Assembly: GCA_035995205.1 (NCBI GenBank) | Contig: DASYKS010000041.1 | Span: forward strand, 173,671-237,670 | Length of the DNA: 64,000 nt | From: Thermoanaerobaculia bacterium | GTDB lineage: Bacteria; Acidobacteriota; Thermoanaerobaculia; Multivoradales; UBA5704 | Reading direction: 5' to 3' | Notes under the pieces: generated by a model | Databases searched by the model: none | Seen by the model: the letters and a program-made list of their open reading frames with translations, nothing else | Told to the model about the DNA's origin: nothing | Made by a program: the position numbers and the translations under genes | Shown: in pieces, positions 15,967-58,287 of the stretch | Layout of the letters: every line of letters begins with the position of its first letter | Position numbering within the stretch: the first letter of the stretch is position 1

Positions 15967-16074
15967 GCGGCGGTTCGATCCTTGCTTGAGTATATGGCTC
16001 CCGCCGGACACTAGAATGCCACCCGAAAAGCAAGCTCCGGGGTCGAACGCCCCATTTCGAAAGGACGCGGACGC

Positions 16075-17172: not shown

Positions 17173-17187
17173 ACGTGGAAGCGAGGG

Positions 17188-17689: not shown

Positions 17690-17950
17690 CTTCGCGCCCG
17701 ATCTTCGCGCCCGCTCGCGGCTCAACCCGATAATTCTAGCTCTATCCCGCCCGATCCCCACCCCCACATCCGCCGCCCGGCGTGTTATCGTCCCGCCAGC
17801 CTTTTTGCTCTGGTCATTTCTCGCGCAGCTCGTCGGCGTCTTTCGCCGGCTCCGTCGGTTTCCCGCCTCGGCTCGAATTCCCTTGACTCGCGGCGGAACC
17901 CGCCTCGGTGCCGCGCTTCGCTTCGGCTTTGCGCAACAGGGGGTTCCTCG

Positions 17951-42485: not shown

Positions 42486-43421
42486 TCAGCGCGGCCCTCC
42501 AGCTTCCTTCCCCGCCAACGCCTCGATCATCCCCTCCAATTTCGCGACGCGCGCCGCAAGGTCCGCGACCTGCCGGTCCTTCTCGGCGATGACCTGGTTC
42601 ATCCCTTGGAGCGCCAGGAATGCCACGCCCGCCTGGTCGCCGGGTGCTATGTGGCGGTTGTCGGCGCCGAGGCCGAAGGCTTGGTGGAAGTCCTGGGCCA
42701 TGGGTCCGAGGTGGCGGATGCCGGGGCTCTCGGTCTTGTAGCTCCAGAGCGAGACGGGCATCGTGAGGACGCGGTCGAGAGCGGTGCGCGGATCGAGGGT
42801 TTCGAAATCGGTCTTGATGTCGCGGCTCGATCCTTCGGTCAGCATGCCGTGGATCGTCAGGTTGCCGTCGACGTCGAGGACCGAGGCCCGGAACGCCGCA
42901 CCCGACAGAATGAAGCTAAAGCCTTGCGAGTCGTTCAGCAGACGCCAGGCGTCGCCGCCGGTCGTGGTCAGGCGCATCTCGGGACTGCTCGCCGCTTCGA
43001 CGTCCAGCCGGGCGTCGGGCGTGGCGGTTCCCAGGCCGACCCGGCCGATGTTGCTCACGAAGAACGAATTGGTCGGCGCGGCGCCGCGTATGGTGACCGG
43101 CACGGTCGCTGCGGTGACGTCCTCGATCGAGAACCGGTTCACTCCGCCGTTGGTCGAGTCGTTCGCGGTCAGGCGCCAATCGGTCGCTGGGAAACCCGCC
43201 GTGGTGCTGGAGTCGTCGAACAGCAGGTGAGTGTTGTTGTGCTTGATCTTCAGGATGTCGAGCCCGAAGCTCTCGGTCGCGCTGCAATCGGTTCCCGCGC
43301 ACAGATCGCCCTGGACGATCAGGGTGTCGGCGATCACCTCCTGCGCGCTCAGGAAAGCCGGCGTGCAGAGCCCGGTCCACAGCAGCAGCAAGATCCATCG
43401 GAACGCCAGTTTCTTGGTCAT
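42486..43421 (-). CDS. Secreted protein with a C-terminal intramolecular-chaperone auto-processing domain (peptidase S74 / tail-fibre-like)
   Basis: …SSRDIKTDFETLDPRTALDRVLTMPVSLWSYK…HLGPMAQDFHQAFGLGADN…LQGMNQVIAEKDRQVADLAARVAKLE… matches the endosialidase/tail-fibre chaperone domain pattern. Confidence 0.65.
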   Translation of the reverse strand: MTKKLAFRWILLLLWTGLCTPAFLSAQEVIADTLIVQGDLCAGTDCSATESFGLDILKIKHNNTHLLFDDSSTTAGFPATDWRLTANDSTNGGVNRFSIEDVTAATVPVTIRGAAPTNSFFVSNIGRVGLGTATPDARLDVEAASSPEMRLTTTGGDAWRLLNDSQGFSFILSGAAFRASVLDVDGNLTIHGMLTEGSSRDIKTDFETLDPRTALDRVLTMPVSLWSYKTESPGIRHLGPMAQDFHQAFGLGADNRHIAPGDQAGVAFLALQGMNQVIAEKDRQVADLAARVAKLEGMIEALAGKEAGGPR

Positions 43422-43533: not shown

Positions 43534-43734
43534 ATGACAACGCCGGTGTTTAAGGGAGGCTCGCAATGCGCAAGGCGGCGTGTTTCGCACGCCGCCTTGG
43601 TCGGCTTGGCCCCTGGGCAGTACTACCTGTTCACCGACTCTGGCGCTACAGGCCCCAGCTCGTCCGGGAGCTATACCCTGTCGATCGGTCCTTCGGTTTG
43701 TCCGGTCGAGCTGATGGAGTTCTCGATCGAATGA
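43534..43734 (+). CDS. Small ORF or gene remnant encoding a PPC-like β-strand segment that ends in the recurrent C-terminal motif
   Basis: MTTPVFKGG…GQYYLFTDSGATGPSSSGSYTLSIGPSVCPVELMEFSIE. Only the last 66 codons of the 43231 frame look protein-like. Confidence 0.3.
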   Translation: MTTPVFKGGSQCARRRVSHAALVGLAPGQYYLFTDSGATGPSSSGSYTLSIGPSVCPVELMEFSIE

Positions 43735-43741
43735 GCGCGGC

Positions 43742-44857
43742 TCACTCCGTCCAGATCTGGCCCAGAGCGCGGCGGAAATTGCCGCCCAGGACCAGCTGCA
43801 CCTCGGCGTCGCCGAAGCCCCGGGAGAGCAGGCCGGCGGCCAGATCGTAGGCGCGGCGGGTGTTGCGCAGGCCGCGGATGTCGTAAGCCATCCGCGCGCG
43901 GCCGGTCGCCGGGTCGGAGAGATCGAGGTCGCAGTCGCTGCCGATCCCCACGTGCTCGACACCCACCAACTGCGCCACGTGGACGAAGTGATCGAGCAGG
44001 CCCTCGATCGTGGGCTCGCCGCCTAGGAAGGCGCGCACTGTCGCGATTCCCATCACCCCGCCGCGCCGGGCGAGAGCCCGAATCACCGCATCGGATTTGT
44101 TACGCGGATGGTGCGCGAGAGCCTGGCAATTGGCATGCGTCACCAGAACGGGCCGGTCCGAGCGGGCGATCGCATCGAGCGTCGTCTTCTCCGAGCAGTG
44201 CGAGACGTCGATCGCCATACCCACCCGATTCATCTCGGCGACAATCCGGCGGCCGAAATCGGTCAGCCCCTGGTCGCGGGGGTCGCGGCAGCCGGAGCCC
44301 AGGCGGCAGCGATCGTTGTAGGTCAGCTGCGAGACCCGTTGGCCGAGGCCGTAGAACAGGGCCACGTCTTCCACGGTGCGGAAATGCTCGCTGCTCTGGA
44401 AGCCGATCAGGATGCCGATCCGTTTCTCGGCCCGAGCGCGATCGAGATCCGCGACGCCGCGGACGGCCAGCAGGTAGCGCGCCTGATTCTGCAGCAGCTC
44501 GTTCCAATCCGCCGCCCAGCCGAGCGCGGCGGCGTGAGGGTTGGAAGAGTTGGGGTCGACCGCGGGGTGGAAGACGTCCACTCCGGAGGCGAGCAGGCGC
44601 TTAAAGTCGGCGTCGCCGAAAGCGGTGGGATTGCGTTGCCAGGAGCGCAAACGGCCCCAGTCAAGCGTCAAGAGGCCGAGCATGTCGATCACCGTGGCGC
44701 GCTCGACGAGCCCTAAGACCCGCGGATCGTCGGCCCCGATCGCGATCGCCGCGCCGGAGCGAGCCTCGGCCAAGGCTACGGCCAGGCCACGTCGAGCCGG
44801 AATGCCGCCGCCCGTTGCGAGGGCGCAGCCCAGAAGAAACCGCCGCCTGCTCAGCAT
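43742..44857 (-). CDS. Membrane dipeptidase (peptidase M19) with a Tat signal
   Basis: RRRFLLGCALATGG Tat motif. …HNDRCR…VSHCSE… are M19 metal-ligand contexts. Confidence 0.8.
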   Translation of the reverse strand: MLSRRRFLLGCALATGGGIPARRGLAVALAEARSGAAIAIGADDPRVLGLVERATVIDMLGLLTLDWGRLRSWQRNPTAFGDADFKRLLASGVDVFHPAVDPNSSNPHAAALGWAADWNELLQNQARYLLAVRGVADLDRARAEKRIGILIGFQSSEHFRTVEDVALFYGLGQRVSQLTYNDRCRLGSGCRDPRDQGLTDFGRRIVAEMNRVGMAIDVSHCSEKTTLDAIARSDRPVLVTHANCQALAHHPRNKSDAVIRALARRGGVMGIATVRAFLGGEPTIEGLLDHFVHVAQLVGVEHVGIGSDCDLDLSDPATGRARMAYDIRGLRNTRRAYDLAAGLLSRGFGDAEVQLVLGGNFRRALGQIWTE

Positions 44858-44998
44858 CGAAAGTCGCCGAACGCTAGGCGACCTCGAAAGTCAAGTCAAG
44901 AGTGATGTGACGGACCGTTTGGCTCGGTAAAAGTCCCCGCCTACCGGACCCCCGCTCCGCCCTGGTACGATCCGCGTCCTTGTCGGAGGTTTTTCACC

Positions 44999-46339
44999 AT
45001 GGCGATGTTCGACGGTCTACAAAACAAGCTGCAAGAGGTATTCCGCAATCTGCGGGGCGAAGGACGGATTTCGGAGGAGGTGCTCCAGGGTGCGCTCCGC
45101 CAGATCCGGCTCGCGCTGCTGGAAGCGGATGTCCATATCCGGGTGGTCAAGCCGTTCGTCGAACGGATCAAAGAACGGGCGCTCGGCGCGGAGGTAATGG
45201 AGAGCCTCTCCCCGTCGCAGCAGGTGGTGAAAATCGTCCGCGACGAGCTCGCCGTGCTGCTCGGCGAGGAAGGCAAGGAGCTGCAGCTCACCAGCCGTCC
45301 CTCGATCGTCCTGCTCTGCGGCCTCCAGGGCTCCGGCAAGACGACCACCGCGGGCAAGCTCGCCAAGCGCCTGGTAGGGAAGGGCCGGCACCCGATCCTG
45401 GTCGCGGGCGATCTTCAGCGCGCCGCGGCGGTCGAGCAGCTCCAGCAGGTGGGCAAGATCGCCGGCGTGCCGGTCGTGACGCCTGAGCCGGGGGAGGACG
45501 TGATCCGCCTCGCGGAGCGGGCGCTCAAAGTGGCGCGGGATCGCGGCAACGACGTGGTGATCGTCGACACCGCCGGCCGTCTTCACGTCGACCAGGCCCT
45601 GATGGCCGAGATCGCCCAGCTCGCGGCGCGCCTGAAGCCGGACGAGGCGCTGTTCGTCGCCGACTCGATGACCGGCCAGGACGCGGTGAAAAGCGCCGAG
45701 CAGTTCGCCGCGGTGGTGCCGCTCACCGGGGCGATCCTGACCAAGCTCGACGGCGACTCGCGCGGCGGCGCGGCGCTGTCGATCCGCACGGTCGCCAAGG
45801 TCCCGATCCGGATGGTCGGAACGGGCGAGAAGGTCGACGACCTGGAGTTGTTCCACCCCGAGCGGATGGCGTCCCGGATGATCGGCATGGGCGACGTCTT
45901 GTCGCTGATCGAGAAGGCCGAGAAGGGAATCGACGTCGAAGAGGCCAAGCGCCTCGCCGAGCGGGCGGTTTCCCAGGAGTTCTCGCTCGAAGACCTGCGC
46001 GATCAGCTACGCCAGATGCGGAAGCTCGGTCCCCTCGCCTCGGTCCTGGAGATGCTGCCCAAGATGGGGCCGCTGCGCGATCTCGACGCCTCGAAGATCG
46101 ACGAGTCGGGCCTGGTCCGCATCGAGGCGATGATCAACTCGATGACCCCGCAGGAGCGGCGCCGCCCCGACGTGATCAACGGCAGCCGCAAGATCCGGAT
46201 CGCCAAAGGCTCCGGCACCTCGGTGCAGGAGATCAACCGCCTGCTCAAGCAGCACAAGATGATGAAAAAGATGATGAAGGGCGTCCAGGGCAAGTTCATG
46301 CGCCGGGCGATGGGGATGAAGGGGAAGATGCGCGGATAG
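44999..46339 (+). CDS. ffh: Signal recognition particle protein Ffh
   Basis: N-domain, G-domain (…LCGLQGSGKTTTAGKLA…DTAGR…TKLDGD…) and Met-rich M-domain (…KMMKKMMKG…). Confidence 0.95.
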   Translation: MAMFDGLQNKLQEVFRNLRGEGRISEEVLQGALRQIRLALLEADVHIRVVKPFVERIKERALGAEVMESLSPSQQVVKIVRDELAVLLGEEGKELQLTSRPSIVLLCGLQGSGKTTTAGKLAKRLVGKGRHPILVAGDLQRAAAVEQLQQVGKIAGVPVVTPEPGEDVIRLAERALKVARDRGNDVVIVDTAGRLHVDQALMAEIAQLAARLKPDEALFVADSMTGQDAVKSAEQFAAVVPLTGAILTKLDGDSRGGAALSIRTVAKVPIRMVGTGEKVDDLELFHPERMASRMIGMGDVLSLIEKAEKGIDVEEAKRLAERAVSQEFSLEDLRDQLRQMRKLGPLASVLEMLPKMGPLRDLDASKIDESGLVRIEAMINSMTPQERRRPDVINGSRKIRIAKGSGTSVQEINRLLKQHKMMKKMMKGVQGKFMRRAMGMKGKMRG

Positions 46340-46435
46340 GGGCGGGCGAGGGCGCAAAGGAGAAGTTCGTTCTGAGTAGGTAACGAAGGTTGCCACGACG
46401 GTCAGGTTGGGTGAGCCGCACTGGGAGAGCGACGA

Positions 46436-47400
46436 TTGCCCTACTTTACGAGGCGATACCGGCTGGTAGTCCTGTCTGGACTGGTAAGCGTCATTGCGCT
46501 GGTACTCGTGGGCAGGTGGCTTAACGCGACAAAGCGAGGCGGGCAGGGGCTCGCCGAACCGTTCCGCATCGCCGCAAACTGTACTACGTCGGCGCGAGCG
46601 ATGCCTCGGCCTTCCTCATCACCGGACCCGAGGGCCACATCCTCCTCGACGGTGGCTATCCCACCACCGCGTCCATGATCATGGCGAGCATCGCGAAGCT
46701 CGGTTTCAACATAAAGGATGTGAAGGTGCTCCTGAATTCGGAGCCGCACCCCGACCACGCAGGCGGGCTGGGGGTGATCCAGCAAGCGTCGGGTGCAGAA
46801 CTTTGGGCGAGCGAAGCGAGCGCCGTCACCCTCGCCTCCGGCGGCGATGACCCCGATGGATTCCTGCCGCTGAGAGCCCTCGTGTGGCTCGGCGTCCTGG
46901 GTTATCCGAAGAGGCGGGTCGACCATCGTTTTCAGGACGGAGGCGCTATCCACCTCGGGCCGCTCATACTCACCGCGCACATCACCGGGGGCCACACGCG
47001 CGGATGCACTTCATGGTCGTTCCAGGTTCATGACGGTGACCGCGTGCTGAACGTCGTGAGCGCCTGCGACCTGGGTCGGTTGGCCACGGCGCAATATCCA
47101 GAGCAGAAGGCCGACCTCGAGCGCAGCTTCAGAGTGCTCCGGGGCTTGCCCGTTGACATCTGGGTGACGTGCCATGCGAGATGGTGGGGCAGATACCGAA
47201 AGTTCGTCGCCAGCGCTACCGCAAAGGACCCCGGCCGCGCATCGAGCTGCCGAACCACCAGGGCCCTCTGTCGCGGTATACGACCCGAAAGAGCACGGTT
47301 TCGAGGAGAACCGGCGGACCGGGCAGCCCAGCAAGGCAGAACGATCCTCGGGCGGCCAACCGCGGCGAGGCCTGGTACGCGAGCGCCACCTCGGGGCGCT
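46436..47400 (+). pseudogene. Subclass B3-like metallo-beta-lactamase-fold gene, frameshifted
   Basis: An N-terminal signal/TM region plus …EPFRIAAN is in frame 1. It continues as …LYYVGASDASAFLITGPEGHILLDGGYPTTASMIMASIAKLG…LLNSEPHPDHAGG…GGHTRGCTSW… in another frame, indicating a 1-nt indel near 46580. The C-terminal end is also out of frame after about 47200. The 3' boundary is approximate. Confidence 0.55.
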
Positions 47401-47455
47401 AACGATCCAGGCGCTCGACCTGGCAATGGGCGCAAAGGGAGTCGGCGGGTTGTGC

Positions 47456-47908
47456 TCATCCGGAGGTCTCTCCGACCTCTATCGGGTCGACAGCGCGGAT
47501 CCCAAGCACCTCGTAACGCTGGAAGTCGGCGGCGTTGAAGGTCAGGATCCGATCGATGCCGTTGGCGAGCATGAGAGCAACCAAGCGGGTATCGTGGACC
47601 TTGACGCCCGAGACGCCGAAGCGTACGACCAACTCCCGCCAGCGGGCGTAGGTCTCGGCGGGTTCGGGCAGCCGTGCAAAGGCTTGCTCGAAGGTTTTCA
47701 ATATTTGGTCGGCGGCTGCGATGGTCTGGCCAAGGCCGTTATTCTCAACCGATCGGGTAGCAACGTTCCAAAGTTCTATGAAGTTTTGACTTGCGGCGTA
47801 GAGGTCATCTTCCACCAGAGCCTCGACGGCAAGGCGTGCGCTTATGTGGCGCGGGTCGGCCGGTACCGCGAGCCGCACCAGGACGTTGGTATCGACCAGA
47901 TGGGCCAC
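47456..47908 (-). CDS. vapC: PIN domain toxin (VapC family)
   Basis: MAHLVDTNVLVRLAV… is a PIN signature. Confidence 0.8.
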   Translation of the reverse strand: MAHLVDTNVLVRLAVPADPRHISARLAVEALVEDDLYAASQNFIELWNVATRSVENNGLGQTIAAADQILKTFEQAFARLPEPAETYARWRELVVRFGVSGVKVHDTRLVALMLANGIDRILTFNAADFQRYEVLGIRAVDPIEVGETSG

Positions 47909-47913
47909 GGTCG

Positions 47914-48183
47914 TTAGGGGTGATCGGTGTAAATCCCTGCGCGCGAAACCGCTTCATCCGACAACGCGGGTGCGTCGCGAAGACCGAGAGCGATCTGGTC
48001 CAGCAGGGCGGAGAGCGCGCTGGCCTTGTGCCGACGGCCGGGCGTGCGCAGAATCCCTTCGACGGTCGAATCGACCGCCTGAAGCAGGATCTCGCGAACG
48101 ACCGCTGCGTCTTGTTGGGCGGCCCCGGCCCGTAACCGGCGCTCCTGTTCGGAAGAAAGCTCAAGCGTGATCGTCATCGACAT
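47914..48183 (-). CDS. Putative antitoxin partner of the PIN toxin
   Basis: An 89-aa ORF lies 5 nt upstream of the vapC start, in the typical TA arrangement. It shows no strong family signature. Confidence 0.5.
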   Translation of the reverse strand: MSMTITLELSSEQERRLRAGAAQQDAAVVREILLQAVDSTVEGILRTPGRRHKASALSALLDQIALGLRDAPALSDEAVSRAGIYTDHP

Positions 48184-48405
48184 CCTCTTTCACCTAATCT
48201 AATTCTAGTACGCATCGGCGTCTCAAGGAGCAGGCGGGATGGCGGCGAGGCTGGATGGCCAAACCTCACGCGCCACACATCTTGGCCACCTGGCCGAATC
48301 GTAGAAAGGACCCAGGGCGTCGTTCCAGCGCGAACGTTCTAGTGAAGGCGATCGAGGCACGTCGGTTATCATGACTTCAAAGAAGATCCCAAAGGAAGAG
48401 TCCTC

Positions 48406-49962
48406 ATGAGAAACCGCCTCTCGCCTCTCGCCTGCGGCGTCCTTTCGACCGCACTCGCCCTGCTGTTCCTCGCCGCTGCCTCTCTCCGCGCCGAGACGGC
48501 CCCGGCGTCGGCGAAACCCACTGTCTATGCCGCCTACGTGCTGCTGGCGGAGTCACCCGCGGGACGCACGGTCGCGTTTGCCCGGGTGATCGTCGATCCT
48601 GGAACGCCTTGTCCGCGGCTGATCGGTGCAGGGAAGGAGCGGATCGCGACGACGCCGCGGCGCAATCCGCATGGGTTTGCGGTCAAGGTTTGCGAGGCCC
48701 GCTATCCGTTCGGGCGCTCTTTTTCGGTCGCGGGCGGCCCGCGGCTGCCGAAAGCGGTCGAGGCGCCCACGCGGATCGCGGTTCTCGGCGATTCCGGCTG
48801 CGAGCCGAAGGATCAGGCGGGGTGCGGGCTGGACGATCCGGCGTGGCCGTTCCCGGCGATCGCCCGGGCGGCCGCGGTGGGGCGCCCGGATCTCGTGCTC
48901 CATGTGGGCGATTACAACTACCGCGGCACGCCGAGCGGCTTTACGGTCACGGTAGACGGCCAGCCCGTCAAGCAGTGGTATTACGATGCCGGCGACGGGG
49001 CCGAGCCGTCGGAGCTTTGCGGCCTGCCGGGTCCCTATTACAGCCAGAACAGCACGGGCAATCCGGACGCCGACACCTGGCAGGCCTGGTCGTTGGATTT
49101 CTTCCAGCCGGCCGGCGATCTGCTCGCCGCGGCGCCCTGGGTCTTTGGGCGCGGCAATCACGAGCTGTGCAGCCACGCGGGGCCGGGCTGGTTCTACTTT
49201 CTCGACCCAAGCTCCGAGCTGGCCGCGGGCGGTGGCAAGCAGCTCGCCTGCCCTTCGCAGGACGGCGCGGGTCCGGCGCTGCCGCATCTTCAGCTCGTCG
49301 AGCCCCAGGTGCTGCATCTCGGCGACCTCGAACTGTTGGTGATCGACTCGGCCAACGCCTGCGACCAGCTGCCCGGCTTGACCGACGTCTACCGGCGCCA
49401 GTTCTCCCAAGCGACGAAGCGGCTGCGCGGCCACCGGGCCTGGTTGATGGGCCATCGGCCGATTTGGGGAATCCAAGACGAGGCGGAGACCCTTTACGGT
49501 TGCGACGGCAAGCCGCAGAGCGGTCCCGCGGTTCCCTACGGCGAGCTGAACCAGACGCTTCAGTGCGCCCTCGAAGGCGAGGTGGGCGCGGCGCTCCTGC
49601 CCAAGCTCGATCAGATCCTTGTCGGCCACATGCACCGGTTCGAAGCGCTCTCGTTCGCCGCCCCGAGCCATCGCCCGCCGACTCTGATCGTCGGCAACAG
49701 CGGAGTCGAAGAGGACACCGGACCACCGACCGGCGCCTTCGCCCAGACCGTCGACGGCGCACCGGCTTCCGGTTTCTCAATCGACCAGTTCGGCTATCTG
49801 GAGCTGACCCGGGACCGCCATGGGGTCTGGCGGGGGGCGATGGTCGCCGAAGACCCCACAGCTTGGTCGCCGTTTCTCGCTCCCTGCGCCACGCCGCCGA
49901 CCGCGGAGCAGGCTCTCTGCGTGAAGCCGATGCCTGCGGGGCCAGGTGGATCGAGCCCATAG
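48406..49962 (+). CDS. Secreted calcineurin-like metallophosphoesterase
   Basis: Signal peptide. …IAVLGDSG…GDYNYRG…GNHE…VGHMHRF… are metallophosphatase motifs. Confidence 0.75.
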   Translation: MRNRLSPLACGVLSTALALLFLAAASLRAETAPASAKPTVYAAYVLLAESPAGRTVAFARVIVDPGTPCPRLIGAGKERIATTPRRNPHGFAVKVCEARYPFGRSFSVAGGPRLPKAVEAPTRIAVLGDSGCEPKDQAGCGLDDPAWPFPAIARAAAVGRPDLVLHVGDYNYRGTPSGFTVTVDGQPVKQWYYDAGDGAEPSELCGLPGPYYSQNSTGNPDADTWQAWSLDFFQPAGDLLAAAPWVFGRGNHELCSHAGPGWFYFLDPSSELAAGGGKQLACPSQDGAGPALPHLQLVEPQVLHLGDLELLVIDSANACDQLPGLTDVYRRQFSQATKRLRGHRAWLMGHRPIWGIQDEAETLYGCDGKPQSGPAVPYGELNQTLQCALEGEVGAALLPKLDQILVGHMHRFEALSFAAPSHRPPTLIVGNSGVEEDTGPPTGAFAQTVDGAPASGFSIDQFGYLELTRDRHGVWRGAMVAEDPTAWSPFLAPCATPPTAEQALCVKPMPAGPGGSSP

Positions 49963-49994
49963 CGGGAGGTGTTGAGGCTCGTCAAAGCTCTCAG

Positions 49995-50064
49995 CCGCAG
50001 CAGCCCTCACCCCCGGCCCCTCTCCCGAAAACGGGAGAGGGGCCGGGGGTGAGGGCTGCTGCGG
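49995..50064. repeat. Perfect 70-nt palindrome (32-bp stem, 6-nt loop)
   Basis: ccgcagcagccctcacccccggcccctctccc-gaaaac-gggagaggggccgggggtgagggctgctgcgg. It lies between the metallophosphoesterase and prsW genes. Confidence 0.5.
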
Positions 50065-50182
50065 CAAGTCGCTGCCGATTTTGACGGAGCCCTGCCGGTA
50101 GGTGCCGAGACCTGCCTGGCACCCACCGCCTCTGTGAGACAATGCCGCCACCGGATCCGTTGTCTCGGAGGAAGGTGGTCCC

Positions 50183-51172
50183 ATGGGGTTTCTGGTCGCC
50201 CTGATCGTGAGCTTCGTGCCGGCTTTCGCCTGCGCCCTGCTGGTCTATTGGTTAGATCGGTACGAGAAGGAGCCGCGGCTACTGCTCGGCGCGGTCTTCT
50301 TCTGGGGCGCCGTGGTCGCGGTGGTGGGCGCGCTCGTCGCGCAGCTGATCCTCGCCGGGGCGGTGACCGCGGCGACCGGTTCGGAGAAGGCGGCCGACGT
50401 CGCGGGCTCGACGCTGTTCGCGCCGATCACGGAAGAGAGTTTGAAAGGAATCGCCATCCTCGCCGTCTTCCTGGTGCTGCGCCGCGAATTCGACTCGGTG
50501 CTCGACGGCATCGTCTACGCCGCGGTCGTGGCGCTCGGTTTCGCCGCCACCGAAAATGTCTTTTACCTTTACGGGGAATTCACCGAGAAAGGGATGAACG
50601 GTCTGTTCAGTCTGTTCATCGTACGGGTGGTCCTCGGGATCTGGAACCATCCGTTCTACACCTCATGGATCGGCATCGGCCTTGCGCTCTCGCGCTTAAG
50701 CCCGAAGGCCTTCGTCCGTTGGTTCGCGCCGCCGTTGGGCTGGGCCGCGGCCTTGGGCTTTCATTCGCTGCACAACACGCTCGCGACGTTCGCGGAAGGG
50801 GCGCCCGGGTTGGGCGTTCTGATGTTTCTCGTCGACTGGCTCGGCTGGCTGGCGATCAGCATTCTGATCCTCGTCTCGATTCGCCGGGAGGGGCGCCTGT
50901 TGGGCACCCATCTGGCCGAAGAGGTGGGACTCGGCCGGCTGACCGCCGCTCAGTACAAAACGGCGACCTCCAGCTGGGCGCAGTCCGGCGCCCGGCTGCG
51001 TACCCTATTCGGCGCCGGCCGGCGGCCGACCCGGCGCTTCTACCAGGTGTGCGGCGAGCTGGCGCACAAGAAAGCCCAGCTCGCCCGGCTCGGCGACGAG
51101 GGGCGCAACCTGGCCCTGGTCGAGAAGCTGCGCGCCGAGCTGGCCGGCCTGTCCAGCCGGGCGATATGCTGA
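50183..51172 (+). CDS. PrsW-family intramembrane metalloprotease
   Basis: …ITEESLKG… (EExxK), …GFAATENVFY… and …FHSLHNTL… (HxxxN) sit on a polytopic membrane scaffold. Confidence 0.75.
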   Translation: MGFLVALIVSFVPAFACALLVYWLDRYEKEPRLLLGAVFFWGAVVAVVGALVAQLILAGAVTAATGSEKAADVAGSTLFAPITEESLKGIAILAVFLVLRREFDSVLDGIVYAAVVALGFAATENVFYLYGEFTEKGMNGLFSLFIVRVVLGIWNHPFYTSWIGIGLALSRLSPKAFVRWFAPPLGWAAALGFHSLHNTLATFAEGAPGLGVLMFLVDWLGWLAISILILVSIRREGRLLGTHLAEEVGLGRLTAAQYKTATSSWAQSGARLRTLFGAGRRPTRRFYQVCGELAHKKAQLARLGDEGRNLALVEKLRAELAGLSSRAIC

Positions 51173-51249
51173 GCTGTACCGACCGTCTATGACGTGCCGC
51201 AATTCTTGCTTGCCACAGCCGCTTCAACACACCATCTAAAGGGGAAGTC

Positions 51250-51924
51250 ATGGAAGTAACGATCAAGCATCAGCCCGCGTTCGCGCTCGCCATCGTCAAA
51301 CTGGGCAGCAACGAAGAGATCAAAGTGGAACCGGGCGCAATGGTCAGCCACACCGACGGCCTGACCACCGAAACCAAGGCGCAGGGGGGCTTTTTCGGCG
51401 GGCTCAAGCGCATGGTGGCGGGCGAGAGCTTCTTCCAGAACACCTGGAAGGCGCCGGCGGAAGGGGGCGAAATTACGCTCGCGGCGACCTTGCCCGGCGA
51501 CTTGATCACGCTGAAAATCGAGGGCAACGAATTCCTGCTGCGCAGCGGCGCCTATGTCGCGAGCGAAATGAACGTCGTCACGGATGCCAGCTGGGGCGGG
51601 GCGAAAGGCTTCTTCGGGGGAGGCGGCTTGATCCTGCTCAAAGTGAGCGGCCAAGGCCAGGTGCTCGCGTGCGCCTACGGCGCGATCGAGGAGCGGACGT
51701 TGGCCGCCGGGCAGTCCTATGTAGTGGACACCGGCCACATCGTCGGAATGGACGCGACCGTGCAGTTCGCGGTGCAAGGTTCCGGCGGCTGGAAATCCAC
51801 CATCCTCGGCGGCGAAGGGCTGGTCTGCCGCCTGACCGGACCGGGCCGTATCCTGATGCAGAGCCGCTCGGAAGAAGCCTTCCTGGGCTGGCTGCTGCCG
51901 AAGATTCCGACCAAGTCGAACTAG
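51250..51924 (+). CDS. AIM24/TIGR00266 (DUF124) family protein
   Basis: The length and the Gly-rich β pattern (…GGFFGG…GGGGLILLKVSGQG…VVDTGHIVGMD…) fit the family. Confidence 0.75.
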   Translation: MEVTIKHQPAFALAIVKLGSNEEIKVEPGAMVSHTDGLTTETKAQGGFFGGLKRMVAGESFFQNTWKAPAEGGEITLAATLPGDLITLKIEGNEFLLRSGAYVASEMNVVTDASWGGAKGFFGGGGLILLKVSGQGQVLACAYGAIEERTLAAGQSYVVDTGHIVGMDATVQFAVQGSGGWKSTILGGEGLVCRLTGPGRILMQSRSEEAFLGWLLPKIPTKSN

Positions 51925-51977
51925 GGGGCTGGTTCGCCGCCGACATCCGCCGGCCGGTAGGATGAACCTCGGGTCCT

Positions 51978-52847
51978 GTGACTTATACTTTCGCCATGGT
52001 GAAGAGTTCGCACCAGCACGAGACCCGAGGACCGTTTCACGCGGATCAGCTTCGCCCTGGCGATCCGTACGAGCTGTCGAACGGCCACCCGATTCACGGC
52101 CTGCCCACGGGGAGCCGGGGGGGAAGGGCGACGAACGTGGGGGGCGGAGTCCTCGCGAGCGATCCGGCGGTGCAGGACGTGGGGGTCGACATCGGCTTTT
52201 CTCCTTCCCCGGAAATCCTCCGCGCTCCGGACCTTGCGGTCGGCGAGATGCCCGACGAGCCGGGCTGGGTTCACGGAGCTCCGCCCTTGGCGGTTGAATA
52301 TGCCGACACCGGCCAAGACGAGGCCGCGTTGCGGATCAAGATGCAGGAGCTTTTCGCCGCGGGCACCCGCTATGTCTGGGTGGTGCGGCTGACGGGCCCG
52401 CGGCGCGTAGAGGTGCATCAGCCGGGTCTGAAGATGCGGATCGCAAATCCCGGCGAACAGCTCGTGGCGCCCGGAATCCTCGCCAATCCGGTGCCGGTCG
52501 AGGCCCTCTACGACCGTGAAGCGGCAAACCGGGTGATCTTCAAGAATCTCTTGGAGCGCCAGGGTTACGCCAGCCTGGACGACGTTCGTGCGGAGGGAGA
52601 GGCCCACGGACGTGCTGAGGGAGAGGCGATCGGACGTGCGGAGGGGGAGGCGCTTGGACGAATCGAAGGGGAGGCCCAGGGGTTGCGCCGGGCGATCGTC
52701 GCGGTTCTGGAAGGCCGCGGCCTGCCGGTCGACAATGAGCTGGAAACCGCCCTCGCAAGCGCCGATGACCCCTTCGTCCTCGAATCCACCCTCCGCCAGG
52801 CGGCCACGGGCTCTCTCGCCGACGTGCTCGCCGCCCTCCGCGCCTGA
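51978..52847 (+). CDS. Uma2 (DUF820) family endonuclease with a C-terminal AEGEAxGR octapeptide repeat tail
   Basis: …PDLAVGE…LAVEYADTGQDEA…GTRYVWVVRL… is the Uma2 PD-(D/E)xK core. It carries 4 copies of the (A/I)EGEA(H/I/L)GR repeat (24-bp DNA period, about 52600-52690). Confidence 0.7.
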   Translation: MTYTFAMVKSSHQHETRGPFHADQLRPGDPYELSNGHPIHGLPTGSRGGRATNVGGGVLASDPAVQDVGVDIGFSPSPEILRAPDLAVGEMPDEPGWVHGAPPLAVEYADTGQDEAALRIKMQELFAAGTRYVWVVRLTGPRRVEVHQPGLKMRIANPGEQLVAPGILANPVPVEALYDREAANRVIFKNLLERQGYASLDDVRAEGEAHGRAEGEAIGRAEGEALGRIEGEAQGLRRAIVAVLEGRGLPVDNELETALASADDPFVLESTLRQAATGSLADVLAALRA

Positions 52848-52984
52848 GCCGTCGAGCGGCTCCGTTGCGGTCAGTCCTTCTCGCGTCCGTGACAGCATGT
52901 CCCGGACCCCGACGCTGGTTCGCAGAGCACGGAAACCGCTTCGCGGCGGCAGAATACGACTCCACCGTCTTGGGGGCGCACTGC

Positions 52985-53640
52985 GCGCAACGCGAACACC
53001 CGTTCACCGGGTCCGGAACCCGGTGTTGTCGTTTGGATCACCACTCCGCCAGACCGGCGAACTTGTTTCTTGGCTGCGTCCACCACTTCGCCGGACCGGC
53101 GAACCGGTGTTTGGGCCCACCACCACTCCCATGAGCCGGAGTCGCGGTGTTCTCGCCCAGTACACCACTCCGCTGGCCCGGCGTAGTCGTGCCTTCGACC
53201 CGCGCACCACTCCCCGGGCCCAGAGGAGCGGTGATTTCCTTCAGTTCACTACTCCGCTGGCCCGGGGGAGTGGTGTTTTCGTCCAGCTCACCACTCCGCT
53301 GGCCCAGGGGAGTGGTGTTTTCATCCAGCTCACCACTCCGCTGGCTCAGGGGAGTGATGTGCTGGACCTTCGAACCACTCCCCCGGACCGGCGGACCGGT
53401 GGGCGGACGCGTATCACCACTTCCCTGAACGAGCGGAGTGGTGTTCCGGGTTGGCTTACCGCTTCGCCGAGCCCGCGGACTCGTGTTCGGGTTCGGCTCA
53501 CCGCTCCGGCGGGTCCGCGAAGGGGTGTTCCGAAGCGTGGGACCGCTTTGCCCTCTCCGCGGAGTCCTGTGAGGAAGCCGCGAACCGGTGGTCTCGGCCC
53601 GCGCACTGGTTTTAGGCTGTGGATCGGTCCGTCGGCGCCG
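52985..53640. repeat. Tandem array of about 14 degenerate 42-bp hairpin-forming units (core CCACTCC-GCTGGCCCrGG-GGAGTGG)
   Basis: There is an exact 42-bp phase between copies starting at 53247, 53289 and 53331. Flanking copies are more degenerate. Each unit contains a 7-bp inverted repeat. All six frames are open across the array. Confidence 0.7.
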
Positions 53641-53668
53641 GCCGCTACCGGTGTCCTCGTGCCGGAGA

Positions 53669-54529
53669 CTAGAGGGGCGCCGCGAGCCGATCCTGGAAAG
53701 TCTTGCGGTCTCCCTTCGCCGCCCGGCGGAAGCGTCGGGGGGAGACTCCGGCGGCGCGGTGGAAGGTCCGTACGAAGTTCGAAAGGTCGCCGAAGCCGAC
53801 GTCGAGCGCGATGTCGGTGATCGACCGCGAGTCGTCGAGCAGCCGGCGCGCCGCTTGGCGCAATCGCGAGCGGATCAAATACTGGTGCGGCGTGACGCCG
53901 AGAACGGCGGAGAAAAGCCGCAGGAAGTGAAACGAGCTGAGACCGGCCGCGGTGGCCGCCGCTTCGAGATCGATCGGCTCGTGCGAGCTCTCGTCGATCC
54001 ACAGCGCGGCTTCGACTGCGCGGCGGCGATCCCGGGCTTGCAGCTGCGATGGCCTCGGCGCCCGCCCGCTGACGGCTTCCAAGAATTGGCCGGCCAGCCC
54101 AAGGCCCGCCTCTTCGAGGCCGATATCGCTCCGGCCTTCGGCGGCGGCCTGCGCGAGCTCTCCGGCGACCATCAATTCGGGTAGCGGCGGCAAGCCGCCA
54201 ATCCGCCAGACGTTCCGGCCTGCCGGCGGCGACAGCTCGGCGAGGGTTTCTACCTGGGCGGGCGGGAAGTGAAACGACAGGCATTCATCGCCGCCGGCAT
54301 GATGATCGTGGGAACAGACGAACTCGTCCCCCGCGCAACCGACCAGGATCGATCCGGCGACCAGCTCGAAAGACTCCCCCCGGGTGCGATAGCCGAAGGT
54401 TCCCCGGCGCACGTAGGAGAGGCAGAAATCGACGTGACGCTCGGTGAAGGGCGCGTCGGCCGGGCCGGCGGCGCAACGGAAGTCGATCGCCGAGATCGCT
54501 CCGGTCTCTAGGATCTTGGTGGCTTTCAT
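53669..54529 (-). CDS. AraC/XylS family transcriptional regulator
   Basis: A C-terminal double HTH (…[24 protein letters not shown]…[33 protein letters not shown]). Confidence 0.8.
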
Positions 54530-54593
54530 GGTCCGAAACCTCCGCCGCCCGGGTTACGAAGATCCGGGCGGCGGAGGGTTGCTAGTCAGAGAC

Positions 54594-57236
54594 CTACTTG
54601 CTTGCCTCGACCGAGAAGTCGATCAGCTCGGCAGGGGTCAAACCGGACAGTTTCCACATGCCGCGGCCGTGGGTGGCGACGACGATCTGGCCGGTCGGAT
54701 TGTCGGTGGAGATCGCCGCCTTCATGTCCATCACGGCGACGTTGGGCAGACCCGTGCCGTACGGCGCCCAGCTGCCGCCGCTGTTGAACGAGACGTAGAC
54801 GCCGATGTCGGTCCCGGCCCAGATGCGGTTGTTGTCGGTCGGATCGACCGCCAGCGCGTTCACCGGGATGTTCGGGATGCCGGTCCCCGAGGGGAGCCAG
54901 GTGGTGCCGCCGTCGATCGACTTCCTGACGTTTTGGCCGGCGCTCGCGGAGAAGCCGGAGAGCGCCGAGTAGACGACCATCGAGTTGCTCGGGTTGATCA
55001 CCAGGTCGGAGACGTAGATGTTCGGCGAATCGACCAAAGTGAAGCTCGCGCCGGTGTCGGTCGAGCGGAAGACCCGGCCGTCGGACGAGCCGGTGTAGAG
55101 GATTGCGGCGTTGGTGCCGCCATGCGCGGGCGCCTGGGCCGCGAGCGTCTCGATGGTGCTGATCGCACCGCCGCCCGCCGTGAGATCCTGTCCGCCGCCG
55201 GTGCCGAGCGGGAAGAAGATCACGGTCGTCGGGGTCGCCGTCTGGGCGGCCGCGAAGAAGCCGGGGGACCGGTAGAGCTTGTTGGTGCCGTAGTAGAACG
55301 TGTCGGTGGCGCCGCGGTCGAGCGCCAACGGGGCGTAGAACAGGACCCGGTCGGAGAGCGGGATGCCGTTGTTGACCAGGACGCCGCACGACGCCGCGGA
55401 ACAGGCGCCGACGATCGTCGTGTAGTCGTTCGGCGTGGACGCCACGCCGAGCAGCGAGGTGGTGGCGGCCATCAGGCTGCCGCTCTGGTTGAAGTAGGTG
55501 TGGACGACGTTGAGCGGAGCGGTCTGGTCGATCAGCGCGAAACCGCCGTCGCCGTCGTCCGAATGAGCCCAGCCGAACGAGCCGCTGCCGGTGTTCGTGC
55601 CGTTGTCCTGGGTGCCGCCGTACGCGGTGCTCGCGGTGGCCGGATGCAGGTCGACGCCGGTGAACTGGACGGTGTTGATGTTGGAGTTCTTGGTCGCCCA
55701 GTTCGTGCCGCGGTCGGGCGAGCGCCAGACGCCGCCGTCGCAAGCCGCCCACAGGGTCGTGGGGGTGACCGGGTCGGTGATCAAGTAGTGGGTGTCGGAG
55801 TGGACGGCGGTCGTGGCGTCCGCGCTGATCATGATGTCGGCGAACGTGGTGCCGCCGTCGGTCGAGCGGCGGACGTTCGCGCGGGTGGCGCCCGCCGAGG
55901 CGACCGCTCCGGCGCCGCCGTGGTAGACGATCATCGGGTTGTCCGGCTGAGCCCAGACCGGCTGGTCATAGAAGCACTGGCCGCCGCAGTAGCCGTTCGC
56001 CGCCGCGAGCTGAACCCAGGTGGCGCCGCCGTCGACCGACTTGTAGATGCGCCCCGGGTTCTGGCCGGCGTTGGTGAAGCTGTTGCCCACGTAATAGGTC
56101 GCCAGGGGGTCGGCCGGTGCTTTGGCGACCGCGATCGTCGCGCGCGCCCAGGCGGCGGCCGCCGCCGGCAAACCGCTCGCGCCGCCCGCGACCTGCGTCC
56201 AGGTGACGCCGTTGTCGATCGACTTGACGACACCGCCGTTCAGAGTTCCGGCGCCGAGGGCCGACTGCCAGCCGGCCGCGAACCAGGTGGTCGCGGTGAC
56301 CGGGTCTTGCACGAGGTTGTTGTAGCGGTTGTTGTCGGTTCCGGCGCCGCAGGTGGTGCAGGTCCAGGTGAGCCCGGCGTCGGCCGAGCGGTAGATGCCG
56401 CGCGGAGCCAAGACCGCCGGCTGGGTGGCGCCGACGCCGAAGATGCCGGACGCGGTGGCCACGAGCAGGATGCTCGGGTTGTTGCGGTCGATCACGATCG
56501 AGCCGATCGTCCGGCCGGTGAACTCGACGCTGCCGAACGGGCCGCTCCAGGTGGCGCCGGAATTCGTCGACTTGTAGACGCCGACGCCCGCGTAACTGTC
56601 GCCCGAGCCGTTCGCTTCGCCGGTGCCGAGATAGATCGTCGCGGTCGTCGCGGTGTGCGCGGTGGAATCGATCGCAATCGAGCCGACCGCGAGCGAGCCC
56701 AGGAAGTCGGTGATCGGGCTCCAGGTCGTGCCGTCGTCGGTGCTCTTCCAGATTCCGCCCTGGGCGGTGCCGAGGTAGACCGGGTACGGCGCGGCGACGC
56801 CGGCGTCGATGCCGATCACGTTCGCTCGACCGCTGCAGTCGCTCCGGTTGTTGCCGTTCTGCGGCGTCTGGCCCTGCTGAATCGGCTGCGGGCCGAGGGG
56901 AGTCCACACCGTGCCGGTCCGGAGCGTCGCCGGGGGCTGGGTCGATTTCATTTGGATCGCTTCCGCGCGGGCGGCCGCGGCATTGAATTCGCCTCCGCCG
57001 ATATTCTGCCGACGAAGAGCGTAATAGGCATCGCGTAGCGAGACGTTCGCCTCTTCCTTGACGGTCTCGAATGCCTGCTCCGGCAGGCGAGGGGTGGTGG
57101 CGGGGGCTTTGGCCCCCTGGGCGATCAGCGCGCCGGAGGCGCCGATCGCGGTCGCCAGGATCATGGCGACGACAGATTTCGAGCGGGGTGCTGTTTTATT
57201 CAAAGAATCCTCCTTTTCCTGCCGGGGGGTCGGCAA
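54594..57236 (-). CDS. Secreted BNR/Asp-box repeat protein (GH74/sortilin-like β-propeller)
   Basis: At least 10 Asp-box motifs (S-x-D-x-G-x-T-W), for example …KSTDDGTTWSP…, …KSVDGGATWVQ… and …KSIDGGTTWLP…. The C-terminus ends …LTPAELIDFSVEASK. The start may be the internal Met MILATAIG…. Confidence 0.7.
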   Translation of the reverse strand: MPTPRQEKEDSLNKTAPRSKSVVAMILATAIGASGALIAQGAKAPATTPRLPEQAFETVKEEANVSLRDAYYALRRQNIGGGEFNAAAARAEAIQMKSTQPPATLRTGTVWTPLGPQPIQQGQTPQNGNNRSDCSGRANVIGIDAGVAAPYPVYLGTAQGGIWKSTDDGTTWSPITDFLGSLAVGSIAIDSTAHTATTATIYLGTGEANGSGDSYAGVGVYKSTNSGATWSGPFGSVEFTGRTIGSIVIDRNNPSILLVATASGIFGVGATQPAVLAPRGIYRSADAGLTWTCTTCGAGTDNNRYNNLVQDPVTATTWFAAGWQSALGAGTLNGGVVKSIDNGVTWTQVAGGASGLPAAAAAWARATIAVAKAPADPLATYYVGNSFTNAGQNPGRIYKSVDGGATWVQLAAANGYCGGQCFYDQPVWAQPDNPMIVYHGGAGAVASAGATRANVRRSTDGGTTFADIMISADATTAVHSDTHYLITDPVTPTTLWAACDGGVWRSPDRGTNWATKNSNINTVQFTGVDLHPATASTAYGGTQDNGTNTGSGSFGWAHSDDGDGGFALIDQTAPLNVVHTYFNQSGSLMAATTSLLGVASTPNDYTTIVGACSAASCGVLVNNGIPLSDRVLFYAPLALDRGATDTFYYGTNKLYRSPGFFAAAQTATPTTVIFFPLGTGGGQDLTAGGGAISTIETLAAQAPAHGGTNAAILYTGSSDGRVFRSTDTGASFTLVDSPNIYVSDLVINPSNSMVVYSALSGFSASAGQNVRKSIDGGTTWLPSGTGIPNIPVNALAVDPTDNNRIWAGTDIGVYVSFNSGGSWAPYGTGLPNVAVMDMKAAISTDNPTGQIVVATHGRGMWKLSGLTPAELIDFSVEASK

Positions 57237-57413
57237 AGGACAAGTAGGAACACGCTAGACCCTGTGCCGAGCCGGGTCAAGAGGGCAGCCGCCCTCGCAA
57301 CATTCTTGCGAGAGGCCTTTTGAGATCTTTCAGGAGACCCAAACCGGACCGAGGGGGTGGAACGGTGGCGGGGACGGCGTGGCGGCGTTCATGGGTGGGG
57401 ACGGAGGAGCCCC

Positions 57414-57443
57414 GGAAAAAGAAAAAGGCCGGTTTCCCGGCCT
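57414..57443 (-). terminator. Rho-independent terminator of the 57471..58169 gene
   Basis: On the minus strand, ggccgg-gaaa-ccggcc is followed by uuuuucuuuuu. Confidence 0.45.
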
Positions 57444-57470
57444 CTCTTCCCTCGCGCTGGCGAGCTTCGA

Positions 57471-58169
57471 TCAGTTGACTTCGAACGACATCAGCTCGAC
57501 CGGGGTCGTGTCGGTGACGACCACGTCGTCGATGCTGATGATGTTGGAGTTGTTGCCGAGCGGGCCGGCGTCGTTCACGAAGTAGCGGAACGCGAACCGG
57601 CCGGCGTTGGGTCCCGCCGGCAGACCGGAGAGCGTGACCGAGAACTGGGTGAAGACGGTCGGGTAGGCCCCGGCGCCGCTGGTGACGAGGCTCGGATTGA
57701 CCGTGGTGAGCAGAGTGGTGAAGCTGCCCACGTCGGCCGACGTGGCGCCGCTGCTGCCCGCCGCGCCGCAGGAATCCGGCGTCGTGTCGATGCACTGCCG
57801 CACTTCCAGGCGATCCGGGAACTGGGTGGGCGCGTTGGCCGTACGGGTCCAGAAGCTGATCTGGTTGCCGTTCTGGAGCGCGGTGAGCTGCTTGGTGATC
57901 AGCCAGCCGCTGATCGTGTCGGCATTGGCCGTGCAGTTGAAGTTCGCGCCGGTGTGGTTTACGCCCCCGTGGGGCGCCCACGGAGTCGCCGTGAACAGGT
58001 TCCAACAGGTGGTGTTCGTGCCGATCGACTGACTCTGGTTGCGCACCAGCCATCCGGTCGGAGGGAACGCACCCTCGAAACCTTCGTTCATCTGTTGCGC
58101 TGCAGCAACGCCGAGAGAGGCCACGGCGGAGAGCAGGACGATCGAGGCGAGACGGATTTTCCGGTTCAT
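57471..58169 (-). CDS. Secreted protein with a choice-of-anchor-like β-sandwich domain, ending in the recurrent C-terminal motif
   Basis: A GGAGG Shine-Dalgarno sequence precedes the start. Signal peptide MNRKIRLASIVLLSAVASLGVAAAQQ. …FRYFVNDAGPLGNNSNIISIDDVVVTDTTPVELMSFEVN at the C-terminus. Confidence 0.55.
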   Translation of the reverse strand: MNRKIRLASIVLLSAVASLGVAAAQQMNEGFEGAFPPTGWLVRNQSQSIGTNTTCWNLFTATPWAPHGGVNHTGANFNCTANADTISGWLITKQLTALQNGNQISFWTRTANAPTQFPDRLEVRQCIDTTPDSCGAAGSSGATSADVGSFTTLLTTVNPSLVTSGAGAYPTVFTQFSVTLSGLPAGPNAGRFAFRYFVNDAGPLGNNSNIISIDDVVVTDTTPVELMSFEVN

Positions 58170-58287
58170 AGGTGAAACCTCCAAGGAATTTTGCCGGACC
58201 TTACAGGAACTCGAGTCGAGATGGAAGAGTGAATTTTCGGCATCTATTCCGTCGCATTTTAGCGCGGAGATTGCAGCATCCGCGGCC

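Follow-up and report, generated by a model that had tools for sequence, protein, structure and literature searches.

C-terminal sorting signals determine which proteins reach the bacterial surface. The small signals of this kind described so far in prokaryotes are tripartite, being composed of a motif, a transmembrane helix and a cluster of Arg residues (Haft 2023, bioRxiv 10.1101/2023.06.07.544157). In the T9SS, or type IX secretion system, the sortase PorU removes the C-terminal domains of the cargo and attaches the cargo to anionic lipopolysaccharide (Gorasia et al. 2015, PMC4560394). Here we analysed a stretch of 64 kb from a Thermoanaerobaculia bacterium (266-kb contig DASYKS010000041.1, positions 173,671 to 237,670 of the forward strand; hereafter the window, numbered from its first letter), in which three open reading frames (ORFs) end, or nearly end, in the same ten-residue tag. 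This tag is very probably a genuine sorting or recognition signal. We also lean towards a more specific description, in which [VLIT]-P-V-E-L-[MILQ]-x-[FY]-x-[VI]-[ED]-COOH would be a modular sorting/anchoring signal on Sec-exported cargo, made of a detached copy of strand A of an FN3-like domain.

A preliminary description of this DNA had noticed the motif on the three ORFs and proposed that it is a recognition signal for a dedicated pathway. We ran the corresponding regular expression, P[VA]EL[MI].F.[VI][EN], on the six-frame translation of the window and obtained exactly three matches, lying 0, 3 and 0 residues ahead of a stop; both the motif and the coordinates reported for it were correct. 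From the window's own six-frame residue frequencies only 1.6e-5 matches are expected by chance, none was found in 100 shuffles, and a random position of the window lies within four codons of a stop in 5.6% of cases. The first tag, PVELMSFEVN (57474-57503, minus strand; ...TTPVELMSFEVN, in longer context ...VVVTDTTPVELMSFEVN), is followed immediately by its stop codon at 57471-57473. The second, PAELIDFSVE (54606-54635, minus strand; ...LTPAELIDFSVEASK or ...KLSGLTPAELIDFSVEASK, with the tail ...PAELIDFSVEASK), is followed by ASK and then by the stop. The third, PVELMEFSIE (43702-43731, plus strand; ...CPVELMEFSIE, in longer context ...SIGPSVCPVELMEFSIE), has the stop directly after it. Reading through the stops of the three tags revealed no in-frame continuation.

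The first tag is carried by a choice-of-anchor J protein of 232 aa (57471-58169, minus strand) with the Sec signal peptide MNRKIRLASIVLLSAVASLGVAAAQ. An identical protein, P0001, is known from a metagenome-assembled genome (MAG) of Thermoanaerobaculia and confirms the start Met. The NCBIfam model NF038128 matched residues 97-288 of the underlying 302-aa ORF (57471-58379, minus strand) with 92.2 bits (E 3.9e-26), above the 30-bit cut-off for membership of the choice-of-anchor J family, and the domain stops ~12 residues short of the C-terminus. The gene immediately downstream on the same strand encodes the carrier of the second tag, a BNR/Asp-box, sortilin-Vps10-like beta-propeller protein of 856 aa (54594-57164, minus strand, according to the gene call of the source contig; the ORF reaches 57236), which has a signal peptide and matches Pfam PF15902 at 7.3e-14 in addition to BNR repeats.

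The third carrier is a 66-aa ORF (43534-43734, plus strand), in which the end of a PPC-like domain, ...SGSYTLSIGPSVC, precedes the tag. Two minus-strand genes flank the 320-bp gap in which it lies; it lacks a signal peptide, the public record has no gene for it, and its GC content at third codon positions (GC3) is 0.73-0.78, as against 0.88-0.93 in intact genes. Its similarity to the other tagged ORFs is confined to the tag, and its tail (SGSYTLSIGPSVC-PVELMEFSIE) resembles the end ...SGSYTLTMTGIEFCIITPVELQAFDIA of another tagged protein, P0318. Judged by these features of its sequence, this ORF is probably the 3' remnant of a tagged gene. Of the two readings offered earlier, small ORF or remnant, the latter is thus favoured by the missing signal peptide, the missing gene record and the reduced GC3. 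The earlier statement that all three carriers are exported holds for the choice-of-anchor J and BNR proteins, which have signal peptides, and fails for this ORF, which has none.

Next, we examined how the tag relates to the preceding fold, using AlphaFold models of the choice-of-anchor J protein of the window (from an alignment of 53 sequences) and of an unrelated cargo family, c2. Both models consist of a confident beta-sandwich core followed by 12 unstructured residues with a predicted local distance difference test score (pLDDT) of 58-65; for the choice-of-anchor J protein, the core exceeds 90 and the last 12 residues, at ~62-65, have no secondary structure. A free, low-confidence tail in two models speaks against the possibility, raised in the preliminary description, that the motif is merely a strand of one domain shared by its carriers. 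Foldseek comparison of the c2 model with the PDB gave only generic jelly-roll/CBM-like matches, none at E <=1e-3. The UniRef name of the c2 family, 'transferrin-binding protein B beta-barrel', was supported neither by Pfam nor by the model.

We then scanned 185,579 genomes, one per species, with the DNA pattern CCNGTNGARCTNATGNNNTTYNNNGTNGANTRR, which carries ~40 bits, so that roughly one chance match is expected. The scan gave 115 matches in 112 loci. All 115 ended on TAA, TAG or TGA and none on TGG, though the pattern permitted TRR. The matches represent 111 distinct DNA 33-mers in which all synonymous codons are used; such variation around a constant peptide indicates selection on the peptide and not a repeat at the DNA level. 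A looser protein pattern, applied to 0.79 Mb of fetched loci, added eight tags, seven directly at a stop and one five residues before it, and none of these eight was internal to a protein. By a crude test, a Sec signal peptide is present in at least 90 of the 115 carriers, most of the others being cut by contig ends.

The 121 tagged ORFs formed 62 BLAST clusters. Their cargo folds, assigned with Pfam and NCBIfam, include Kelch, FG-GAP, lamin-tail, beta-helix with choice-of-anchor Q, PA-domain/M36-like, PD40 and P-domain proteins, a repertoire usual for C-terminal sorting. Most hosts belong to the Thermoanaerobaculia, Holophagae, Vicinamibacteria or other Acidobacteriota; they are joined by Gammaproteobacteria (a Wenzhouxiangella isolate, Lysobacteraceae, Xanthomonadaceae, Rhodanobacteraceae and Alcanivoracaceae), one member of Methylomirabilota and one of 'Multivoradales'. 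We also observed that tandem paralogues are common in the tagged families, with two or three genes in a row (L123, 10001-10861 and 11128-11985; L030, 56-943, 1077-1949 and 2050-2937; also L093, L096 and L108).

Homologues of the choice-of-anchor J protein were collected through the N-terminal domain, that is, not by the tag. Some 60 of these proteins terminate in ...TPVELMSFEV[ED]-COOH; variants include PVELQSFSVE, PVSLQSYEIE and PVALQNFSVD. The terminal residue among these unbiased homologues is Glu or Asp in nearly all cases and rarely Asn, Gln, Ser or Arg, and the residue before the terminal Glu/Asp is Val or Ile. Other choice-of-anchor J homologues have a PEP-CTERM signal (VPEP...RRRR) or a T9SS C-terminal domain (PF18962) in the same C-terminal slot. 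Since the tag swaps with these elements, it occupies the anchor slot of a family that is named for anchor swapping.

No Pfam or NCBIfam model matched the tag in the window proteins, in 20 other tagged proteins or in the bare tails at E values up to 10, and literature searches for the motif, for sorting in Wenzhouxiangella and for sorting by strand complementation returned nothing relevant. The earlier view that this is not a PEP-CTERM, LPXTG or GlyGly-CTERM signal was borne out, as the motif is followed neither by a hydrophobic segment nor by basic residues. The tag does not have the architecture of LPXTG, GlyGly-CTERM, MYXO-CTERM or IPTL-CTERM, nor that of PEP-CTERM, for which PF07589 gave no match and from which true PEP-CTERM homologues (VPEP...LLRRRRK) are clearly distinct. 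Having neither helix nor basic tail, it belongs to none of the tripartite classes. A truncated PEP-CTERM, as the NCBI name of P0047 would have it, was rejected, the motif being a different one and the helix being absent. The T9SS alternative of a C-terminal Ig-like domain of ~70-100 aa (PF18962/TIGR04183) was likewise not found in the window proteins and 20 other tagged proteins; only 10-12 residues follow the last folded domain in tagged proteins.

The instances found across genomes, every one of the 115 at a stop codon, and the signal peptides on at least 90 of the 115 carriers from ~60 unrelated families are what the preliminary description had suggested looking for. Together with the anchor slot and the free tail, they support its proposal of a recognition signal for a dedicated pathway.

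A candidate reader of this signal came from the genes beside it. Family-C25 peptidases, which recur near tagged genes as described below, are accompanied by an FN3-like domain of ~90 aa (NTLRWxTASEVDNFGFDVYRG...YFYYVESISLSGxRERFTPV), for which no Pfam, NCBIfam or PDB sequence match was found. A phmmer search with this domain retrieved 7237 cluster representatives at E <=1e-3, and the best 150 of these 7237 could be divided into two classes. The first consists of 'full' domains, multi-copy or internal, some of which are followed by T9SS C-terminal domains (P0376 and P0392, from other phyla). They follow the pattern ...LPVELSSFTA(x5-7)VxLxWxTxxExxNxGFxxYR, with an extra strand ahead of the Trp strand (IPVELSSFTAV, LPVELSSFTAM, TAVELLSFSAE, LPVTLSAFAAV). 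This strand A matches the tag (LPVELMSFSVE) almost residue for residue.

We quantified this equivalence with a position matrix built from 28 strand-A segments of full domains only. When whole proteins were searched, the best-scoring 11-mer was the C-terminal tag in 48 of the 59 tagged choice-of-anchor J homologues and in 53 of 60 c2 homologues. In the BNR protein of the window it was TPAELIDFSVE, at residue 842 of 856, with 17.4 bits. Among untagged homologues, the best 11-mer lay at the C-terminus in only 3 of 61, where ~2% would be expected from position alone.

The second class comprises 118 small proteins together with fusions to C25 peptidases and to peptidyl-prolyl isomerases (PPIases), and its domain begins at the Trp strand. 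Alignment of 98 of the small proteins gave less than 1 bit of information per position from -30 to -7, ~1.2 bits at -6 and 0.85 at -5, followed by a leap to ~3 bits at -4 (N-T-L-R-W). Conservation that begins so abruptly, four residues before the Trp, suggests that this class, the receptor form, lacks strand A. Upstream of it there is a signal peptide, often with a lipobox, and then an Ala/Pro/Glu-rich low-complexity linker.

The receptor domain occurs in three settings, namely stand-alone small lipoproteins (such as L121, 4208-4591, and L128, 5702-6151), C25 fusions (L036, L124, P0214, P0216, P0246, P0259, P0280, P0304 and P0344), where it sits at the C-terminus and once at the N-terminus, and parvulin-type PPIase fusions (L084, L122, P0331, P0338, P0351, P0364 and P0366), where it sits at the C-terminus of the second PPIase. 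One protein, P0318, combines in a single chain a cargo domain with ITPVELQAFDIA and, after a linker of 14 residues, a receptor-type domain, and as read from its sequence this fusion ties a tag-type strand to a receptor-type body. A separate 128-aa ORF, located between tagged choice-of-anchor J and C25 genes (L128, 2369-2755, minus strand; EFRIYRG...YRFQD...VYEVRFADEAGRERV), looks like it holds another, diverged copy of the FN3-like domain.

To describe the gene neighbourhoods, we clustered all ORFs of the 112 genome-scan loci, each of 8 kb or less. A parvulin-type PPIase lipoprotein of ~590 aa (PF13145, PF00639) recurs in 26 tagged loci and a sulfatase-TPR lipoprotein of ~650-720 aa (PF00884 plus TPR) in 20. 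One or both are present in 28 tagged loci, beside tagged proteins of at least nine BLAST clusters, and the start and stop codons of PPIase, sulfatase-TPR and tagged genes often overlap. In a reciprocal test on metagenomes that started from the PPIase, a tagged gene was found immediately upstream in five of six loci. The PPIase and sulfatase-TPR pair alone had been considered as the machinery, and was demoted once the link to C25 and the receptor domain emerged.

This link is seen in several arrangements. One locus (L020) has, on a single strand, a small receptor lipoprotein, a C25 peptidase, a tagged gene, a PPIase and a sulfatase-TPR gene; another (L040) has a tagged gene, PPIase, sulfatase-TPR and C25. 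A C25-receptor fusion lies directly upstream of a tagged choice-of-anchor J gene in L036, and a tagged choice-of-anchor J gene (P0037), a C25 gene and a receptor lipoprotein gene fall inside 4.5 kb in L128. Four more contigs suggest synteny of C25 with choice-of-anchor J genes. A larger cluster is common to Wenzhouxiangella sediminis (L121) and a Thermoanaerobaculia MAG (L122): genes for a TPR protein, an FG-GAP/UnbV protein and PPIase2 on one strand, a divergent set of tagged c2, PPIase1 and sulfatase-TPR, and C25 nearby. Tag and partners co-occur in W. sediminis (L121), in Thermoanaerobaculia JAUIJL01 (L004, L122) and in the MAG GCA_036005845.1 (L055, L124).

The C25 proteins matched the NCBIfam PorU model NF033707 with 195-197 bits (E ~1e-57, positions 7-739 of 1095), which is under the 420-bit cut-off and makes them relatives of PorU. 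The sortase-like enzyme that the preliminary description had given as an example therefore has a counterpart in these PorU-like C25 peptidases, repeatedly encoded beside tagged genes. Some C25 loci lie among glycosyltransferase, Wzy_C, PMT_2 and sulfotransferase genes, which would fit a glycan or glycolipid acceptor as in T9SS.

From these sequence relationships we think it rather probable that the FN3-like receptor domain reads the tag through strand complementation and that the PorU-like enzyme handles it. Once exported, the cargo would insert its flexible tail into a receptor domain, in place of the edge strand that this domain lacks. A receptor borne by a foldase would hold or fold the cargo, and one borne by a lipoprotein, on its Ala/Pro/Glu-rich tether, would tether the cargo to a membrane. 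A receptor on the PorU-like enzyme would offer the C-terminus to be cleaved and, if the analogy with PorU extends so far, perhaps to be transferred to a glycolipid. That tag and receptor bind physically, that the cargo is cleaved and where it ends up are thus what we infer from the arrangement of tag, domain and genes. We give an even chance to the full proposal of a natural tag-catcher system, in which a strand-A address is read by strand-deficient lipoproteins, a PorU-like sortase and a foldase, and which would amount to PorU-type attachment outside T9SS.

Several observations weigh against the strand-complementation proposal. No C25, receptor-domain or PPIase gene was found in the 64 kb window, and most of the C25/receptor loci retrieved through homology (L124-L127) lack any tagged gene up to a distance of 10 kb. 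Many of the PPIase and sulfatase-TPR neighbourhoods belong to one diversified superfamily of jelly-roll cargo, the c2-like proteins (pre-tag NAxxRxxG), so that they partly reflect conserved synteny and are partly non-independent. By their model scores, the neighbouring C25 peptidases are PorU relatives below the family cut-off and not PorU, and the missing strand A of the receptor form is itself a reading of aligned sequences. Finally, in L121 and L122 the C25 gene adjoins a gene for a DUF11 protein with an IPTL-CTERM.

The latter DUF11-repeat proteins (IPTL-CTERM end, PF18203; ...VPTLDAWSILLMIMMMGVLGVAGLMRRFS) stand next to C25 in a gammaproteobacterium (L121, 15003-15950 on the plus strand and 16083-18377 on the minus strand) and in an acidobacterium (L122, 2583-3896 on the minus strand and 1-2122 on the plus strand). 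We know of no sorting enzyme for IPTL-CTERM, and the C25 enzyme might also, or instead, process this signal.

Among the other explanations, the one that survives best is that the tag is an export signal for the outer membrane, T9SS-like, acting through a hypothetical translocon, with the receptor domains as mere shuttles and no lasting anchoring. The cargo, with choice-of-anchor J and Q, M36-like, Kelch and FG-GAP proteins, does recall the cargo of T9SS and of other secretion-linked sorting systems, relatives of PorU are present, and full FN3-like copies precede T9SS C-terminal domains in P0376 and P0392. We nevertheless regard this explanation as unlikely, because ~1 Mb of neighbourhoods showed no recurrent outer-membrane channel or T9SS core gene (PorK/L/M/N, Sov/SprA and PorV were not noticed among the recurrent neighbours; whole genomes were not searched), and a ten-residue strand with a tethered lipoprotein receptor suits docking better than translocation.

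A quite unlikely explanation, in our judgement, is that the receptor is the TPR domain of the sulfatase-TPR lipoprotein, which would hold the tag by a carboxylate clamp while its alkaline-phosphatase-superfamily domain modifies the cargo, the FN3-like domain being incidental. TPR domains are known to bind free C-termini: Hop binds EEVD-COOH and PEX5 binds SKL-COOH in this way. The tag has a free terminal Glu or Asp in nearly all cases, preceded by Val or Ile, and in the 20 genome-scan loci no more than 4 kb separates the sulfatase-TPR gene from a tagged gene, with stop and start codons that often overlap; one further C25 locus has such a gene 4 kb away. The window has one as well (13837-16011, minus strand), encoding a sulfatase-family (alkaline-phosphatase superfamily) lipoprotein with TPR repeats (PF00884, 1.9e-38) that is 30-40% identical to the copies in tagged operons.

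This window copy does not adjoin a tag, however; it is 27 kb from the nearest one and shares no operon with any, and we treat it as a candidate paralogue or orthologue of the tagged-operon enzyme with a weak tie to the tag. The architecture is common in these phyla, with many paralogues. Nothing specific connects the TPR repeats to the tag peptide, nor does this explanation account for the match between the tag and strand A of the domain that neighbouring enzymes carry, without that strand, as a fusion. The sulfatase-TPR protein may be an additional component of the proposed strand-complementation system and not an alternative to it.

The preliminary description had also given a PDZ protease as an example. 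In this reading, the tag would be a degron or an activation signal for PDZ-type quality-control or processing proteases (Prc/Tsp, CtpA, DegS/DegP). The motif does require a free C-terminus, but PDZ ligands end in a hydrophobic residue, and the tag terminates in Glu or Asp in nearly all homologues; no PDZ protein recurs near tagged genes, and one would not expect a degron to stand in for PEP-CTERM or T9SS anchors in families of the choice-of-anchor type. We therefore consider this suggestion very improbable. That the tails are functionless vestiges of full FN3-like domains truncated after strand A would agree with the homology of the tag to strand A of a domain that lies C-terminal to cargo domains in other phyla, but is hardly credible when ~60 families in several phyla stop at the same exact final residue, the tag follows a consensus unlike that of internal strand A (Met at -6, acidic end in the tag), the peptide is fixed with synonymous codons free, and strand-A-less partner domains exist and are gene-linked.

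The surroundings of the three tags contain further features. The tagged remnant is adjoined by a gene for an exported 311-aa protein (42486-43421, minus strand) with a Peptidase_S74 domain (PF13884, 6.5e-9) and a C-terminal coiled coil; Peptidase_S74 is the intramolecular chaperone of endosialidase and tail-fibre proteins, and its usual setting is phage tail fibres. Also next to the remnant is a gene (43742-44857, minus strand) whose product has a Tat-like signal, MLSRRRFLLGCALATGG, and is a suspected M19 dipeptidase, judging from its translation. In OZ375331, a genome of 12.2 Mb, a Peptidase_M19 gene (L127, 6031-7317, plus strand) stands directly ahead of the genes for C25 and the receptor lipoprotein.

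A PIN-domain toxin gene (PF01850) with a small upstream partner (47456-47908 and 47914-48183, both minus strand) apparently forms a VapBC-like toxin-antitoxin pair. A PrsW-family intramembrane metalloprotease (PF13367, 3.9e-45) is encoded at 50183-51172 (plus strand), 3.4 kb from the tagged BNR gene; no link between PrsW and the tag was found at other loci. The gap between a Uma2-family gene (51978-52847) and an AraC-type regulator (53669-54529) contains an array of 42-bp tandem repeats (53146-53530; ~5 plus 2.3 copies, 76-78% identity), each unit of which holds the inverted repeat CACCACTCC...GGAGTGGTG.

If the proposed system is real, sorting signals would gain a recognition principle new to them, in which a helix-less tag of ten residues is read through strand complementation. 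In Thermoanaerobaculia and Holophagae, abundant groups with hardly any cultured members, the system would account for the handling of dozens of hypothetical exported proteins per genome, and it would give PorU-like C25 peptidases a role outside Bacteroidota. Genome-wide annotation of the tag is feasible at once with a simple model, the system can be tested in culturable Wenzhouxiangella species, and a natural pair of peptide and receptor domain is a possible tool for protein engineering.

Finally, we compared the tag and its proposed partners with known systems. Like LPXTG/sortase, PEP-CTERM/exosortase, GlyGly-CTERM/rhombosortase and MYXO-CTERM/myxosortase, the tag is short, takes the same anchor slot at the extreme C-terminus, is present on many unrelated exported proteins per genome and sometimes has the presumed processing enzyme encoded next to it; it differs from these signals in having an acidic end in place of a helix and basic tail. 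The recognition of EEVD by Hop and of SKL by PEX5 resembles the present case in the free acidic C-terminal peptide and in the TPR proteins encoded alongside, and differs in that tag binding by the TPR domains is here only a rival explanation.

In principle only, chaperone-usher assembly is similar, as another polypeptide supplies the strand that an incomplete Ig-like fold needs. There, the pilins lack the C-terminal G strand, the donor is an N-terminal extension or a chaperone, and the purpose is polymerisation, whereas here strand A would be missing, the donor would be the very C-terminus of unrelated cargo proteins, and sorting or anchoring is the purpose we propose; neither usher nor PapD-like chaperone genes appeared among the neighbours, and we do not assign the tag to this class. 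SpyTag/SpyCatcher, a man-made pair derived from CnaB domains, is joined by an isopeptide bond, and a short strand docks into an Ig-like domain without it; in the present case the split seems natural, another domain family is involved and there is no evidence of a covalent bond.

The T9SS signal is an Ig-like domain of ~80 residues and the hosts are Bacteroidota, whereas here a single strand of 10-11 residues is found in Acidobacteriota and Gammaproteobacteria, and recognition would depend on an FN3-like module that lacks a strand, which PorU is not known to have. What the tag shares with T9SS is the C-terminal signal on Sec-exported cargo, including choice-of-anchor J proteins whose homologues bear PF18962 in Bacteroidota, and the PorU-related family-C25 peptidase encoded beside the cargo, with some C25 loci amid glycan and glycolipid genes.

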